Source: Cyanobacteriota bacterium (lineage in GTDB: Bacteria > Cyanobacteriota > Cyanobacteriia > Elainellales > Elainellaceae). Taken from it: DNA of 64,000 bases. Shown in pieces: positions 51,287 to 63,481 of the stretch. The notes under the pieces were generated by a model that saw only the letters and a program-made list of their open reading frames with translations, made no database searches and had not been told where the DNA came from. The stretch is from contig JBDNCP010000002.1 of the NCBI GenBank assembly GCA_046719575.1, positions 2,689-66,688 of the forward strand. Direction: 5' to 3'. The stretch's first letter is position 1. Every line of letters begins with the position of its first letter. The position numbers were made by a program, and so were the translations under genes.

Positions 51287-52279
51287 TCACCACTCGTCAG
51301 CGCGATAGAACCGATCCGCTAGATCGCCCACCTGTTCTCGAATAAACGCAATTTCCTCCGCCGAAAGCTTGTCCTTCCAGGTGTAGGCGTTGGCTTTGCC
51401 GTTGCGCTTCAGGGCAAGCAGCAACGGCTCTACCAAGGGATTTTTTTTGTCGGGATTTTTTTTGTCGGGATTTTTGTCGTCGCTGTAGTACGTGATTTCT
51501 CGCTGCACGTCGTCGCCGAAGTCCAGCCCCAATTGGTCAAAGATTTGCCGAAAGCCCTCCAGCGGCTCCAGCGACAGGTCTTCATGCCGCACAAACTGCC
51601 AGTGAGGAAACTGATCCTGGTAGGTGGCGATGCGATAGTGAATCAGCTTCCACAGCAGCGCCGCGTGTTCCAAAATCGAGCGCCCATGTCCACCACCCGG
51701 CACCTCGTCTCCGGCGATGAATTCCTCAATTTCTGCTGCGAAAGGATGCAAATGATCGCGCATCAGCAGCGGCTGGTCGAGAAAATGGCGGAAGTTGTGG
51801 AACCAGCCCGCTTTTTTCAAGCTGTAGGCAAAGGCAGCAGGGTGACGAATCATCACCACCACATCCATGTCGAACCGGGTCGCCAGCCAGTCGGCAGAAA
51901 AGAGGGCGATCGGGTCTTTGAGCAAGGGACGGCAGCCCGCTGCCCGACTTTTGACAAAAAAAGCGCGATCCTCTAAGACTTTGCGGCGATATTCGGCATC
52001 GTTCACCAGCTTCCAACTGGGGATTAGGTTGTATTGCAGCCGCACCGTTTTCTCAAAAAAGCGGCGATATTGGGCTTCGTTGTCGGCGCAGATGTATTGA
52101 AACCAGTAGTCCCACTGTGCGCCGCAAAAGCCCAGATTGTGATCCAGATGAAACGGCTCGTGAATATAGGCGACCTGGGGCGAAGCGCCAATCATCAGCC
52201 CCACCCAGGTTGAGCCAGAACGGTGGGAACCCGTTACCAGAATCGGTTTTGGAATGGGTTTTGGAAAGGCTCTGCCCAT
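51287..52279 (-). CDS. PAPS-dependent sulfotransferase
   Basis: 5'-PSB loop TGSHRSGSTW, LLKDP, 3'-PB IRHPAAFAYS and VRHEDL motifs. Confidence 0.88.
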   Translation of the reverse strand: MGRAFPKPIPKPILVTGSHRSGSTWVGLMIGASPQVAYIHEPFHLDHNLGFCGAQWDYWFQYICADNEAQYRRFFEKTVRLQYNLIPSWKLVNDAEYRRKVLEDRAFFVKSRAAGCRPLLKDPIALFSADWLATRFDMDVVVMIRHPAAFAYSLKKAGWFHNFRHFLDQPLLMRDHLHPFAAEIEEFIAGDEVPGGGHGRSILEHAALLWKLIHYRIATYQDQFPHWQFVRHEDLSLEPLEGFRQIFDQLGLDFGDDVQREITYYSDDKNPDKKNPDKKNPLVEPLLLALKRNGKANAYTWKDKLSAEEIAFIREQVGDLADRFYRADEW

Positions 52280-52300
52280 AGCGCTACGAACTGGCACGGG

Positions 52301-55778: not shown

Positions 55779-57065
55779 TCACGGGCATCTGGGATAGAGG
55801 GACTGGGTGGGTGTGCGGCGGGGACTCAGCACCAGCACCGAATCCATGAACTGTTTCAACTCTGCCTGCCGGGTCGATGAACTCACGCCTGCTTGCAGAT
55901 GTCGCAGCACCAGTTGGATAAAGCGGCGACTGGCGGCGATCGCTGCACGGGTCGGCGTGCTGCTCAGGTTAATATAATCGCGTGGATCGCCGAAGAAAAT
56001 CCGGCCATTGGGCTGACGCATGGGCATAACCCGATGCTCCTGCGGATAAGATAACCCCCCCAGTCCAAAATAGCGGATAAACCGGATGGCTCCCGCGCCG
56101 CCGTTCTCGCGCTCTGTATGGGCCGGAGAATAGGAATCCTGAATCAGGTGCAGCGCCTCGCCCAGCCATTCAAAGGCAGCCTCGCGGGTGGGAGCAGTCA
56201 TGATCCGCTGATAGATGGCGACAAGCTGCTGCCGTGCTTCGGCGAGGGACTCTTCTAGTGGTTGGCACTTGTGGCGGCGCAGCATGTGGCGGCGCTGTTG
56301 CGATGGCTTGAAGTGGTTTGTGATTTTCTCCAGATCCACTCGGCGCACGCCCCGATTCATAGCCCCCAGCTCAGCAGGAGTAATGGGCAGCCCCTTGGCA
56401 GCCTCCCGATTCAGAGTTTCATGTCCCGGCGGAATGCGGCGCTTAATGTCTTCTACCACAAACGGATCGGCTTCGCGCTCGGCGGCCATTTCTTGCAGCG
56501 TTTCTAGATACTGCTGCTGAATTCGACGATCAAATGAGCGTGGCGCAGCCGATTCAAATTTGGATTCACGCTCGAATTCAAACTCAGATTCAAACTCAGA
56601 TTCAAATCCCTGTTCAAATTCCCATTCAAATTCCAATGCCAGTTCCCATTCTGCTTCGCGCTGTTTCGGTGGAGACACTTGCACAACCGGAGGCAGCTTG
56701 TCTCCCGGATTCAGCGTCGTCACCAGCACAATCCGGTTGCCGTTCTCGCCGCCGGGCCGATAGAAAATCGGCACCCCCCGCACCACCGTCACGCGGGTAT
56801 TGTAGCCAGGACGGGTTTGACGATAGTGTTTGGCGGCGCGAAACTCGCGGACGAAGGTGCGCGGATCGAACCGCATACCACCAGAGGCAACCCGTTGCAA
56901 AAAGCGCTGGGTGAAATGGATCGTGGGCAAAAAGCCCTGGCGCTTGAGATAGGCGGCAAACCGCTGAGCGATGCTGCGTCCGGCTTGCCCCCGGCGGCCA
57001 AATTCATCTTCAAACTCCGGAGCGGCGGAGCCGTTCTGGAGCGCTTTAGTTGAAAACGAGTTCAT
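55779..57065 (-). CDS. Two-domain hypothetical protein: small basic N-terminal domain, E/F-rich linker, Zn-PLC/S1-P1-like C-terminal domain
   Basis: TIHFTQRFLQR; linker EWELALEFEWEFEQGFESEFESEFEFERES; then GHETL, VD, H and LGEALHLIQDSYSPAH. The ORF is well supported; domain calls are from motifs only. Confidence 0.7.
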   Translation of the reverse strand: MNSFSTKALQNGSAAPEFEDEFGRRGQAGRSIAQRFAAYLKRQGFLPTIHFTQRFLQRVASGGMRFDPRTFVREFRAAKHYRQTRPGYNTRVTVVRGVPIFYRPGGENGNRIVLVTTLNPGDKLPPVVQVSPPKQREAEWELALEFEWEFEQGFESEFESEFEFERESKFESAAPRSFDRRIQQQYLETLQEMAAEREADPFVVEDIKRRIPPGHETLNREAAKGLPITPAELGAMNRGVRRVDLEKITNHFKPSQQRRHMLRRHKCQPLEESLAEARQQLVAIYQRIMTAPTREAAFEWLGEALHLIQDSYSPAHTERENGGAGAIRFIRYFGLGGLSYPQEHRVMPMRQPNGRIFFGDPRDYINLSSTPTRAAIAASRRFIQLVLRHLQAGVSSSTRQAELKQFMDSVLVLSPRRTPTQSLYPRCP

Positions 57066-57091: not shown

Positions 57092-57200
57092 TTTGAATTT
57101 TAGGCTGGCGATTTTGGCTGGGTATTTTGGATCGGCGATTTTGGATTGCGATCGCTCAGTCTGTTTCAATCCACAATCCAAAATCTAGAATCCAAAATCG
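57092..57200. repeat. Degenerate ATTTTGG arrays facing CCAAAAT arrays around a HIP1 site
   Basis: gattttggctgg...attttggatcggcgattttggattgcgatcgc...aatccaaaatctagaatccaaaatcg. Confidence 0.7.
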
Positions 57201-60247: not shown

Positions 60248-61624
60248 CTATCTCCTTGCTAAAGCTTTATAGAAGTTTTCAGTAATAAGTCCCGGCGCGG
60301 CCAGCCGTCGATCTAGCGCGTGGCGAGAGGCGCAGATCAGGAAGCGTTCGGGAATGATGCCCGGATCGTTGCCTTTGGCCAGCCGCTGCCCCGCTTCTTC
60401 GATGATTTGCTGGTGGTGCGGTTTGAAGCCGGTGACCTCTGCCAGCGATCGCCCGCCCAGTTCGCCATAAGGCGTGTAGCAAATCGTATCGACGACCAGC
60501 TTGTGGGCCCGATCGAAGGTTTGCAGCACGGCGGGTGGAATCGTACCCGCACGCGGATTGGGATACAGGCGCTTCCAGATGCGGTTGTAATAGTCCGCCA
60601 TTTGCGGAAAGCCCATCCGCCGCAATAGCTCCGTGCTGATGAACACGCGCAGGTAGGGCGTGGGATGGGGCGCACCGGGGTGAAAGAAGAGGGTGCTTTG
60701 GGGCGATCGCGAGGCAATGTCCATCAGCGAGGCGACGATGTAGGGGCCGCCCAGCAGCAGCCCCGACATATCCGCAAAGGTTTCGCTGTGCCATTTTGTC
60801 CACACGGCTGCCACATCCGGGGATAACCCCGCCTTCAGCAACCGATGGGCGATCGCCTTGGGCAGGGTTTGCCGCAGCCCCAGATCGGTCTGCAAGTTGT
60901 GGGCGACTTCGTGCAAAATCGCCCCCAGCGTCCAGGGATTCACCAGGCGGTGATAGGGCAGTTGGATCAGCGGAAACGGATTGAGCTGCTGGCTCAGCTT
61001 GGTCAGGGGAATGCCGCGCCGGAAGGTGGCGGGCGAAAACCCCGTCTTGACATAGGAGAAGGGCGGCGGAGCCGGGATCGACTTCGCCTTGCCCAGGCCC
61101 ATGTACACGTCCTGATAGCAGTCAAGCGCGATGCGATCGCACCCCAACAGCCAGGGCGCAAACTGGCTCTGCCGCTGCCCAAATAGCTCAAAGTAAAAGT
61201 CCCAGATTTGCTCGATCTTCCGCACCAGATCATGAGCCTGATCTTTGCGGGCGATCATCTGTTGCAGATGAGCCGTAGCGGGCTGGGCGATCGCCGCCTG
61301 AGTGCTGCCAGACACGGTTTTGGAGACACCCTGGAGGTGCGATCGCAATCGAGCAATAAGCTGGTTTACCGCGTCGATATGGGCATCGCTGGGGCTGGCC
61401 GCATCGGAGCCAAACTCACCCTGCCGGAAGGGGCGCAGCGCCGCTACATGGCGTGCCACGTTAATCGCCTGCGCCCGCAGCCAGGGGTCGAGGTTGGGCG
61501 GCTCCACAAAGCGGGCGATCGCCTGAGGCTCAGGCATGGTTTCCTGATATAGCTCGGCAAGCGCTAGCCGTGTTGCTCGATACGGGTCTATCCCGTTCTT
61601 TGATCCGTTCGTAAACCCATTCAT
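60248..61624 (-). CDS. Putative gluzincin-type zinc metallopeptidase (458 aa)
   Basis: ILHEVAH (aa 238-242), ETFAD about 40 aa later, then GGP and HP.PYLR; GGGAG RBS. Confidence 0.75.
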   Translation of the reverse strand: MNGFTNGSKNGIDPYRATRLALAELYQETMPEPQAIARFVEPPNLDPWLRAQAINVARHVAALRPFRQGEFGSDAASPSDAHIDAVNQLIARLRSHLQGVSKTVSGSTQAAIAQPATAHLQQMIARKDQAHDLVRKIEQIWDFYFELFGQRQSQFAPWLLGCDRIALDCYQDVYMGLGKAKSIPAPPPFSYVKTGFSPATFRRGIPLTKLSQQLNPFPLIQLPYHRLVNPWTLGAILHEVAHNLQTDLGLRQTLPKAIAHRLLKAGLSPDVAAVWTKWHSETFADMSGLLLGGPYIVASLMDIASRSPQSTLFFHPGAPHPTPYLRVFISTELLRRMGFPQMADYYNRIWKRLYPNPRAGTIPPAVLQTFDRAHKLVVDTICYTPYGELGGRSLAEVTGFKPHHQQIIEEAGQRLAKGNDPGIIPERFLICASRHALDRRLAAPGLITENFYKALARR

Positions 61625-61690: not shown

Positions 61691-62524
61691 CTATACGAAG
61701 GCCCGCTTGCGTGCGCTGCAACTGCACTGGCGGCTGTGAATCTGGCGCGATCGCTTCATCACAGCAGAGGCGCGGCGCGGATTGCCCAACACCTGCGCCA
61801 CATTGCCAGCCACCGTCCGCGCTGCTACGCGAGCGTTTACGGGCTGTCCTTTAGCGACGCGCTGCGCCAGGGTTGCCATGCTGCTGCGGGCGATCGTGGG
61901 GAAGGTGCGAACCAGCGGACGGGTCTGAGGGTTTTGGAGCAGCGCCCGACCGGCCTGAGCCAGAGGACGAATAACCTGGGGAACCACGCGAGAGATGACG
62001 GGTGCGGCTGCGCTGAGGCCCCGCGCCACCATTGGAATCAATGCGCCAATGAAGGCTTCGGCTTCGGCTTCGCTCTGGCTGTTGGCCGCCATGTGGGCCA
62101 GATGCTCAGCCATCACCTCATACTCGCTGGCCGGCGCGGTTTCAAATTCGGGCAGCACTTCAGGATGCTGCTCATATTCATACTCAAACTCGCCATCGCC
62201 CCCAAAGGCGCTGCCCAATCCCCGCAGCAGATTGCCAATAAAGGGATCGCCTTCGTATTCGCCTTCCAGTTCAAACTCGTTCAGGGGTGTTTCATACTCC
62301 ATCTCAAATTCGCGCTGGCCCCGGCGGCGACGGCGACGACGAAATAGCCCGCCGATTGCTTGAATGGCCATCGGTGCAGCCGCTTTAAGAATAGGAGCTA
62401 GCAAGGGCAAAAACTCTTCGCTCTCGTATTCGTACTCGTATGCGCGATCGCTTTCACCCAGAACGGCTGATTCAAATTCTGATTCCAGTTCTCGATCCAG
62501 GGTTTCAAGTTCGTACTGATACAT
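61691..62524 (-). CDS. Acidic/basic block protein B (277 aa) with E/Y/F-rich spacers and amphipathic segments
   Basis: AAGGAG RBS. Contains EYESEEFLPLLAPILK, R7, EYEGDPFIG and SEAEAEAFIG. The C-terminal half aligns with the gene at 62606. Confidence 0.88.
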   Translation of the reverse strand: MYQYELETLDRELESEFESAVLGESDRAYEYEYESEEFLPLLAPILKAAAPMAIQAIGGLFRRRRRRRGQREFEMEYETPLNEFELEGEYEGDPFIGNLLRGLGSAFGGDGEFEYEYEQHPEVLPEFETAPASEYEVMAEHLAHMAANSQSEAEAEAFIGALIPMVARGLSAAAPVISRVVPQVIRPLAQAGRALLQNPQTRPLVRTFPTIARSSMATLAQRVAKGQPVNARVAARTVAGNVAQVLGNPRRASAVMKRSRQIHSRQCSCSARKRAFV

Positions 62525-62605
62525 GAGTTAGGGTCTCCTTTTGCAGTGATGTTTGGTTGAAAGTCAAAAGTTGAAAATCGAAAATAGAACAAGACTCCAG
62601 TGCGA

Positions 62606-63481
62606 CTAGCCCCGTACTTTCTTGCGGGCAACTGGAGCAGGTTGGTTCACTTTCTGCGCGACTTTGGCAGAATTGGCGACAATTCGAGCAGCGGTCATGG
62701 GATTTTTGAGCGCTTTGCGGGTTTGGGCGGCCATCACCTGAGCCACGACCGGGCGGGTAATTGGCTTGCCCTGCGCGGCTTTCTGAGTCAACACTTGCCC
62801 CGTCCGCATAGCGACCGTCGGCAAAATTCGCACCAGCGGTCGAGTCGTCGGGTTTTGGCGTAGCCCCCGCGTCAGTTGGGCGCTGGCCTTAACGATCGCC
62901 GGAATTTGCTTTTGCACCGCAGCCGCTTTGGTCGGCAACACGCGAGTCACAGCAGCCCCCGCAAAGGCCTCGGCTTCGGCTTCGTTTTGGGCTTTGGCAG
63001 CAGCGCCGGCCAGCGCTTCGGCAACGGCTTCCATCTGCGGCGTGGCGACAGACTCAAACTCGCCCGCCCATTCCCCTTCAAACTCCATCTGTCCGGCCGT
63101 TTCATATTCAAATTCGTACTCGCTCTCGCGCATCATCTGTCCCAGCGCTGCGCCAAGCTGTGGCCCGCCAATGGCATTGCCGATCAGACGAGTGGCATGG
63201 GGAATCACTTTCGGTAGGATGGGTTTGAGCCGCCCAGCAAGACGGCGCACCGTACTCAAAAAGGCTTCACTTTCGTATTCGCCCTCATACTCACTTTCAT
63301 ATTCGCCTTCGTATTCACCTTCGCCCAGTCCGAGGGCATTCATTGCGCCGCCGATGAGTCCACCCAAGAATTCTTCGCCTTCGTATTCATGCTGAACTTC
63401 GTATTCATTTTGCAGGTCATATTCAAATTCGCTTTCAAACTCATTCGTGAGTTCCTGTTGCAGAGTTTCACCGTCCAACAT
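62606..63481 (-). CDS. Acidic/basic block protein A (291 aa), paralogue of the gene at 61691
   Basis: GGAG RBS. Contains EYEGEEFLGG, EYESEAFLST and NEAEAEAFAG. Shares QNP.TRPLVR..PT...G.P...NP with the paralogue. Confidence 0.88.
   Translation of the reverse strand: MLDGETLQQELTNEFESEFEYDLQNEYEVQHEYEGEEFLGGLIGGAMNALGLGEGEYEGEYESEYEGEYESEAFLSTVRRLAGRLKPILPKVIPHATRLIGNAIGGPQLGAALGQMMRESEYEFEYETAGQMEFEGEWAGEFESVATPQMEAVAEALAGAAAKAQNEAEAEAFAGAAVTRVLPTKAAAVQKQIPAIVKASAQLTRGLRQNPTTRPLVRILPTVAMRTGQVLTQKAAQGKPITRPVVAQVMAAQTRKALKNPMTAARIVANSAKVAQKVNQPAPVARKKVRG

Follow-up and report, generated by a model that had tools for sequence, protein, structure and literature searches.

Genes A and B, adjacent on the minus strand of a 64,000-nucleotide (nt) stretch of DNA from a Cyanobacteriota bacterium of the Elainellaceae (assembly GCA_046719575.1, contig JBDNCP010000002.1, positions 2,689 to 66,688; the whole stretch is called the window below), encode two modular proteins in which acidic tracts alternate with acid-free segments that are led, at a conserved junction, mostly by Phe or Met. 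They head a cluster that also encodes a putative metallopeptidase. To judge from sequence, this cluster is widely transferred and unnamed, and its five core protein families are without described relatives or recognisable folds. We tentatively prefer to read the acidic tracts as removable pro-regions or tags (probability about 0.45), whose cleavage would free membrane-active and polybasic modules within a protease-gated lysis or toxin-release module. The architecture and the families appear to be new when set against described families; the mechanism as a whole, including cleavage, peptidase specificity and membrane activity, we infer from sequence and synteny. Full-text literature searches turned up no publication on either the cluster or the tract.

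Gene A (62606..63481) is the first open reading frame (ORF) of the operon and encodes the A-type paralogue of 291 amino acids (aa), while the ORF of gene B (61691..62524) encodes the B-type paralogue of 277 aa. The two proteins are 35% identical over approximately 240 residues, and in each of them some 45 acidic residues and 40 basic ones are kept apart in separate blocks. The acidic tracts, with net charges of -10 to -14 each, obey a strict period of two: in A, 26 pairs of acidic residues are found at lag 2, versus one at lag 1 and one at lag 3, and the positions between the acids are occupied by Phe, Tyr, Trp or small residues. The acid-free segments with which the tracts alternate are of two kinds, some short, nearly uncharged and rich in Gly and Leu, such as FLGGLIGGAMNALGLG and FIGNLLRGLGSAFGG, others longer and cationic, such as that starting with FLSTVRRLAGRLKPILPKV (charge +7). 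Both proteins end in a domain of 120 aa that is devoid of acidic residues and has a charge of +20 to +22.

In A, a first period-2 Glu/aromatic tract with a net charge of -14 (aa 1-37, 63371..63481), whose alternate-position Glu residues are conserved in the family alignment, leads to the junction GEE|FLG, a match to the strict junction motif defined below, and to the neutral Gly/Leu-rich segment FLGGLIGGAMNALGLG (aa 38-53, 63323..63370); 'EEFLG' shows 50-90% conservation among 77 A-type proteins. A second acidic tract made of EGEY repeats (aa 54-72, 63266..63322) is followed by the junction SEA|FL and a cationic segment (+7; aa 73-118, 63128..63265), a candidate for a helix-Pro-helix arrangement. 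The counterpart of this segment, 'EEFFRRI...AAPxxGTAxGGP', is conserved across phyla, and its amphipathicity in the window is marginal (p 0.085). A third acidic/aromatic tract (aa 119-155, 63017..63127) precedes the invariant EAEAEA-x-x-GA and the polybasic C-terminal domain (+22; aa 156-291, 62609..63016).

The layout of B is similar. Its first period-2 Glu/aromatic tract (aa 1-37, 62414..62524) ends at the junction SEE|FLP, which opens a hydrophobic, Pro-containing block followed by a run of seven Arg residues, R7 (aa 38-71, 62312..62413; maximum of the 19-residue Kyte-Doolittle mean, 1.54); the FLPLL...R7G part corresponds to aa 38-68, i.e., nt 62413-62321. Further on, the junction GDP|FIGNLL starts a short amphipathic, Gly-rich segment (aa 94-109, 62198..62245; p 0.001), and a counterpart of this DPF junction, EADPF, is seen in the 428-aa protein encoded downstream (P428, see below). 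The last part of the protein (aa 141-277, 61694..62104) consists of HLAHMAA, the strict-motif match SEAEAEA|FIGAL and the acid-free polybasic domain (+20). Invariant positions of the C-terminal domain are E13, E15, A16, E17, A18, G21, A22, P43 and P70. The domain family comprises 937 clusters, counted as representatives at 50% identity, and neither a PDB nor a Pfam match was found for it.

Family-wide counts were made on a set of 157 A/B-type proteins from 80 related loci and the window (49,011 residues). The HExxH gene of the cluster was found in 265 species genomes in a scan of one genome per species, and the synteny and family counts given here come from the best 80 of these 265 loci unless stated otherwise. 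A junction was counted where an acidic tract passes into an acid-free run of at least 10 residues. By this definition, 351 of 391 acid-to-non-acid junctions (90%) have Phe, Met, Tyr or Trp at position +1 or +2, with Phe as the anchor in 76% and Met in 16%; elsewhere in the segments Phe makes up only 2.2% of the residues. A single logo, E-x-E-x-E-[A/E]-F-[L/F/I]-G-x-[L/I], describes all junction classes, with Ala (42%) or Glu (33%) at position -1, Glu at -2 (92%), Gly at +2 (66%), and no Lys or Arg. In its strict form, E.E[AE]F[LFI]G, the motif occurs twice in the six-frame ORFs of the genome (3.6 million residues), once in A and once in B, and 121 times in the family set, an enrichment of approximately 4,000-fold over the genome background in which, as for the junctions, the counts come from related sequences and are not independent events.

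The junction motif is kept in both cyanobacterial and non-cyanobacterial lineages. With junctions and segments numbered in order along each protein, four of the six junctions are family-wide, namely A1, A2, B1 and the EAEAEA-F/M-x-GA junction of both proteins. Other elements are restricted: a B-type Arg run of at least four Lys or Arg residues is present in 13 of 27 cyanobacterial B-types and in none of 53 elsewhere, and the DPF[IL] segment is found in cyanobacterial B-types only (15 of 27). The first-pass annotation of this DNA, made from its letters alone, had pointed out six acid-to-Phe junctions, and all the strings that it quoted are present letter for letter and correctly placed; the architecture that it described, an acidic tract followed by a Phe-led hydrophobic or cationic segment, is real, and is conserved across phyla at the four junctions just named. 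Its proposal that the R7 tail resembles a cell-penetrating motif fares less well, the tail being confined to cyanobacterial B-types.

The tracts are encoded in part by 12/24-bp tandem DNA repeats, at 63266-63323 in A and at 56551-56651 in the gene of P428. Slippage at such repeats can alter tract length, which accounts for the length differences among homologues. One might accordingly suppose that the junctions are a by-product, without function, of the expansion of Glu-rich repeats in fast-evolving orphan proteins, since the tracts derive partly from such repeats and are variable in length. This low-complexity coincidence is refuted by the retention of the motif and of the module order in at least eight phyla, by the enrichment of the motif and by near-universal synteny, and we regard it as barely credible.

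The synteny was first met in one Streptomyces and one Chloroflexota locus, both of which contain A orthologues. Across the loci the operon order is A, B, the HExxH protein (H), a 183-aa helical protein that is absent in cyanobacteria, a 569-aa protein (P569) and a 374-aa protein (P374), and this order is near-universal, with A upstream of B in 68 of 79 loci. The 80 loci span Cyanobacteria, Acidobacteriota, Chloroflexota, Actinomycetota, Planctomycetota, Pseudomonadota, Deinococcota (Deinococcales) and Binatia. In the window, H (458 aa, 60248..61624) starts after a gap of 66 bp from B, and P569 (58532..60241) follows H by 6 bp, both on the minus strand, as are P374 (57247..58371) and P428, a candidate effector (55779..57065) with a Glu/aromatic tract at aa ~137-171 and the EADPF junction. 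Identities across phyla reach 57-65% for H and 54-74% for the all-helical core protein P374. In P569, a C-terminal domain of about 400 aa is conserved, and the transthyretin/Ig-like head in front of it is variable and differs by member (CarboxypepD_reg, SdrD_B, SpaA, PKD or TIG domains). No ATPase, membrane or transporter protein is encoded in the cluster, and the core proteins have no signal peptides.

None of the six window proteins matched Pfam, NCBIfam, PHROGs or PADLOC above cut-off; a GASH match for A (E 0.008) and an Adeno_PX match for B (E 0.51) are compositional and were discarded. PDB sequence and profile searches with H, P374, P569, the A/B C-terminal domain and P428 gave no meaningful match. 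The AlphaFold2 (AF2) model of P374, with a predicted local distance difference test score (pLDDT) of 74, is all-helical, and Foldseek found no PDB match to it at E ≤ 0.001; rows that aligned P374 to the alpha-pore-formers SmhA and AhlB (E > 1, TM-score 0.17) are not significant.

B homologues number 389 at E ≤ 1e-3, every one of them labelled 'hypothetical', and the start MYQYELE is kept among them. In metagenomic relatives (the P0148, P0238, P0170, P0186 set), A-B fusion proteins with two C-terminal domains are found, and some B-types are fused C-terminally to an Aspzincin_M35-like domain or to PG_binding_1 and an OmpA-like domain. These A-B fusions and effector-fused B-types indicate that the pair acts jointly and can carry effectors.

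The candidate protease is H. An HEVAH motif is encoded at nt 60899-60913 and ETFAD at nt 60770-60784, and residues H238, E239, H242, E281 and D285 do not vary among 44 sequences drawn from several phyla. The HExxH...ExxxD arrangement defines thermolysin-type gluzincins, and these enzymes prefer a hydrophobic residue in P1'. H may on these grounds be considered a putative gluzincin with presumed peptidase activity, and the Phe/Met anchor of the junctions would fit the P1' preference of such an enzyme. A relative with 27% identity that keeps both HExxH and ExxxD is encoded on plasmid pBq66S1MBa of Bradyrhizobium quebecense (L086, 7743-9164), between genes for phospholipase D-like and patatin proteins and two genes for CHAT-domain proteases, with an S8 peptidase nearby. 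This setting resembles that of conflict systems and suggests that there is a wider peptidase family linked to conflict-type loci.

In the mechanism that we propose, the tracts would keep the hydrophobic and polybasic modules, as well as tagged effectors, soluble and inert in the producer. Cleavage at E-x-E-[A/E]|F-[L/F/I]-G, which would place Phe or Met in P1', would be the task of the HExxH peptidase, and this enzyme might digest the tracts too. The freed peptides and the polycationic domain would then open a membrane and thereby let effectors that degrade the cell wall or nucleic acids act, the target being either the producer, by abortive-infection-like lysis, or its neighbors, by toxin release. 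In a cluster without signal peptides or transporters, whose effectors have to get across a membrane, the A/B segments are the only candidates for membrane-active parts, which supports a membrane-breaching role for them. Their best 19-residue Kyte-Doolittle means, 1.54-1.64, are borderline with respect to the clear transmembrane helix by which a holin is recognized, and lie within Pro-containing stretches.

The tract is also found on proteins other than A and B. Genome-wide, only three proteins carry it over more than one scan window, A, B and P428; three single-window matches elsewhere look like chance. At other loci, genes just after that of P374 encode proteins with an N-terminal tract followed by PG_binding and Peptidase_M74 domains, Peptidase_M15 and phage tail lysozyme domains, trypsin and OmpA domains, or GIY-YIG, and extra A/B-like proteins carry it as well. 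Some P374 orthologues have a C-terminal Glu/aromatic tag, e.g., ECEFEEECEFEEECEFEV, as in L002:7020-8210 (Chloroflexota), L032, L035, L040, L045 and L046; P374 of the window does not. That the tract marks swappable effectors argues against a spacer specific to lytic peptides, as the tracts had initially been interpreted, and its presence on some 374-aa core proteins points the same way.

In two acidobacterial trypsin-like effectors the tract ends as ...AERE|VIGRDTRV and ...AEPE|IIGPDTRV. Residue 73 (V) of the former was aligned, when PDB was searched, with residue 2 of the crystallised glutamyl endopeptidase chain 1p3c_A; the effector of L046 gave no PDB alignment at E ≤ 1e-10 and was aligned pairwise to that of L049 instead. 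The tract end falls one residue before the position of 1p3c_A residue 2, and the tract thus sits in the place of an S1 zymogen propeptide. Zymogen-type S1 enzymes need a free mature N-terminus for activity. The likeness to the Bacillus glutamyl endopeptidase is that the tract of the tagged effectors stands at the propeptide place before VIG.D.R..V.NT; in contrast, it concerns effectors of other genomes rather than A or B, and the tract bears no sequence relationship to the S1 propeptides known.

A gene of the M20 peptidase family lies on the same strand downstream of P374 or of the effector in 35 non-cyanobacterial loci (L001, L030-L083), with the variable effector slot between P374 and the M20 gene. 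Of three members tested, two exceed the cut-off of NF006053, a 'dipeptidase' equivalog, and the one from Streptomyces stays below it. Cutting a period-2 tract before each aromatic residue would give dipeptides, which would fit an M20 enzyme. Indirectly, the downstream HExxH protein, the tract in the propeptide place and the syntenic M20 gene speak for an idea already put forward in the first-pass annotation, namely that the acidic tracts serve as masks that can be removed. A more specific version, in which toxin release is ATPase-free and triggered by the protease, the tract is a degradable 'safety catch' on peptides and enzymes alike, H is a gluzincin of novel fold that cuts at the junctions and before each aromatic residue, and M20 clears the dipeptides, is conceivable and, in our view, on balance doubtful.

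How far the segments resemble membrane-active peptides was assessed by comparing their amphipathicity with that of shuffled sequences. It is significant for B2 and for the start of the B C-terminal domain (p ≤ 0.011), the first 40 residues of the latter being strongly amphipathic (z 3.7). For A1 to A3 it is marginal (p 0.04-0.24 depending on window length), and B1, a hydrophobic block followed by the Arg run, forms no amphipathic helix (p 0.53). The earlier description of the segments as amphipathic thus holds for B2 and the B C-terminal domain start, is marginal for A1-A3 and fails for B1. Across the family, cationic segments of at least 25 aa have a mean z of 2.3, and 67% of them exceed 1.64; among short segments, 153 of 309 are uncharged Gly/Leu-rich stretches of at most 25 aa.

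These data bear on the proposal made at the outset, which, taken literally, makes A and B secreted antimicrobial peptide (AMP) polyproteins that have converged on the precursors of temporin, brevinin and phylloseptin, and whose peptides act on competitors from outside. The precursors of amphibian skin AMPs (temporin, brevinin or dermaseptin type) have an acidic pro-region with, immediately behind it, a hydrophobic or cationic peptide, often Phe-led, and the conserved order of acidic tract and Phe-led segment, the family-wide amphipathicity of the cationic segments, the adjoining putative peptidase and the peptidoglycan-targeting companion effectors all agree with this proposal. However, A and B have no signal peptide, exporter or dibasic site, their N-termini being acidic (MLDGETLQQELTNEFESEFE, MYQYELETLDRELESEFE) and without a hydrophobic core. 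In addition, the would-be cores do not diversify but stay conserved from phylum to phylum, one half of the short segments carries no charge, the R7 tail belongs to one lineage, and no frog-peptide or bacteriocin family of Pfam or NCBIfam was matched. The dominant conserved part is not a peptide but the polybasic domain of 120 aa, which with its invariant Pro, Gly and Thr positions does not resemble fast-evolving AMP cores, and in this respect, as in the presence of several modules, a cytoplasmic location, an operon and a tract that also tags enzymes, the proteins differ from AMP precursors. Convergence on amphibian-type precursors is accordingly not upheld, and a secreted AMP polyprotein seems to us improbable.

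The dipeptide-repeat pro-region of bee promelittin and the EA spacers of yeast alpha-factor also have a two-residue period and are removed stepwise by dipeptidyl peptidases. A and B differ from both of these precursors by the same lack of a signal peptide and of Lys-Arg. Multi-core precursors of ribosomally synthesized and post-translationally modified peptides (RiPPs) of the cyanobactin, microviridin or lanthipeptide type differ in two ways: by Pfam, no PatA/G subtilases, YcaO, ATP-grasp, LanM or radical SAM enzymes are encoded in the cluster or its neighborhood, and RiPP cores are hypervariable and set between conserved recognition sequences, whereas here the segments are conserved across phyla and it is the acidic tracts that vary in length.

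Several observations weigh against the interpretation of the tracts as removable pro-regions. The EAEAEA-F-x-GA junction probably lies in a continuous helix running into the C-terminal domain, and could be a structural or docking element. The conserved Pro, Thr and Gly positions of that domain suggest a specific fold or interface, which would make it less like a generic lytic peptide. Significant amphipathicity is limited to some of the segments in the window. Tuned compensation of acidic by basic charge was considered and rejected: the correlation between negative and positive charge (r 0.55) is mostly an effect of length, the partial r being 0.14. The M20 gene is absent from the cyanobacterial loci, including the window, and a core identity of 54-74% between phyla is unusual for conflict systems. 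Lastly, the AF2 model of H (pLDDT 80) is all-alpha, whereas the zincin fold packs its active-site helix against a beta-sheet; it resembles no known zincin fold and has no match among the PDB and viral models in Foldseek searches at E ≤ 0.001; in this model, the most conserved stretch before HExxH (conserved residues 189-227) has a pLDDT below 50.

Some of these features could be explained if A and B were never cleaved and served as a scaffold or adaptor, the Glu/aromatic tracts and the Arg-rich C-terminal domains acting as complementary multivalent stickers through salt bridges and cation-pi contacts and building a cytoplasmic particle or condensate, with the tag recruiting effectors and F-[L/F/I]-G docking to P374, P569 or H. 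A sequence common to effectors and some 374-aa core proteins is tag-like, and the acidic and basic residues are segregated in blocks. The C-terminal domain has conserved, fold-like positions, the core proteins are strongly conserved, as structural subunits often are, and the cluster is devoid of ATPase and membrane proteins. Moreover, beta-sheets in which peptides with alternating Phe and Glu are paired with complementary peptides of Arg and Phe have been reported (PMC5770463). Such a scaffold would, however, leave unexplained why two peptidase genes belong to the conserved cluster, why the tag occupies the zymogen-propeptide position of trypsin-like effectors, and why the Phe/Met-anchored junction fits the P1' preference of a gluzincin. 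We consider it the main rival, though rather unlikely.

The C-terminal domain, at +20 to +22 and acid-free over 120 aa, might also bind nucleic acids or other polyanions, with the Glu/aromatic tracts as auto-inhibitory mimics and a role unrelated to membranes; that some effectors are GIY-YIG nucleases would be in line with this. Yet the searches recognised no fold or family known for nucleic-acid binding, the effectors that can be identified mostly hydrolyse or bind peptidoglycan, and the hydrophobic Gly-rich segments and the junction motif would be left without explanation. Polyanion binding of this sort appears very improbable.

If the tracts are indeed removable pro-regions, the cluster would share its logic in part with known systems. 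In bacterial gasdermin operons, a membrane attacker is likewise held inert by an attached segment until it is set free by a protease encoded alongside, here a putative one. In contrast, A and B have no match to the gasdermin fold or family (Pfam, PADLOC), the place of a caspase-like enzyme or a subtilase would be taken by a metallopeptidase, no NACHT, TPR or similar sensor domain is present, and the core is far more conserved across phyla. Encapsulin loading peptides, N-terminal packaging signals of contractile injection systems and effector markers of type VI secretion systems resemble the tract in that a short common sequence marks unrelated effectors, whether separate or core-fused. Unlike in those packaging systems, the cluster encodes no shell, sheath, tube, ATPase or membrane component, and the tag is a long, period-2 polyanionic tract.

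The VMAP/FtsH ternary conflict systems combine a zincin-like metallopeptidase with a small, fast-diverging substrate protein, and one of their peptide classes is 'acidic' (PMC7159879). The families are different ones, however, the present cluster has no vWA, MoxR or FtsH partners, and its candidate substrates are conserved, paired and multi-modular. As in polymorphic toxins, a conserved carrier part goes together with variable toxin domains (M15, M74, lysozyme, trypsin and OmpA, GIY-YIG; B-type fusions).

Were the tracts shown to be removed by H, a digestible pro-region of alternating Glu and aromatic residues would represent a new way to hold membrane-active peptides and lytic enzymes inert. 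H would also stand for a new peptidase family, for which a candidate recognition motif is defined, and the compact logic of tag and release might be reused to activate proteins in a controlled way. With candidate substrates, protease and cleavage motif all named, the question can be put to a direct test.

Among the other proteins with tracts, P428 consists of an N-terminal PEFEDEF, a basic domain of about 120 aa, a long Glu/Phe/Trp tract, EADPF and a C-terminal domain. Its basic domain is common to homologues with other C-terminal domains (GIY-YIG in L007), and in this P428 resembles a polymorphic effector. A His/Asp pattern of P428, HLIQDSYSPAH, is reminiscent of the sites of phospholipase C (PLC) and P1-nuclease, a resemblance supported by neither Pfam nor PDB. 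In some Nostocales, three extra proteins of the cluster (L025:11556-13205, L025:13540-15036 and L027:11350-13002) have long (EYEG)n tracts followed by dozens of basic repeats rich in Arg, Ala and Pro (RRPAPAA, AARKAAS).

Past the cluster, at a distance of 3.5 kb, the window contains a sulfotransferase gene (51287-52297, minus strand), and tyrosine sulfation of the EY tracts was therefore considered. It was rejected because orthologues swap Tyr for Phe or Trp and because no sulfotransferase was called near the Streptomyces and Chloroflexota loci. No consistent small ORF that could be an immunity gene was found downstream of the cluster, where the next gene is a convergent HAD hydrolase gene in the window and an M20 gene at many loci. 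Scans for promoters and terminators gave matches not above chance level.

A phage origin finds no support, the HExxH protein being absent from 50,697 phage records and no PHROG being matched, and carriage of the HExxH gene on plasmids is rare. The cluster has the GC content of its flanking DNA. Near-identical copies of B (96-98%) are present in Thermoleptolyngbya and Leptothermofonsia genomes, by which the host is a filamentous, thermophilic cyanobacterium, and a search of sequencing runs located the A/B stretch in DNA of hot-spring metagenomes. Finally, the 181-bp spacer between the genes of P374 and P428 contains, at 57097-57199, tandem 13-mer and heptamer (AATCCAA) repeats, which may be of the cyanobacterial short tandemly repeated repetitive (STRR) type.

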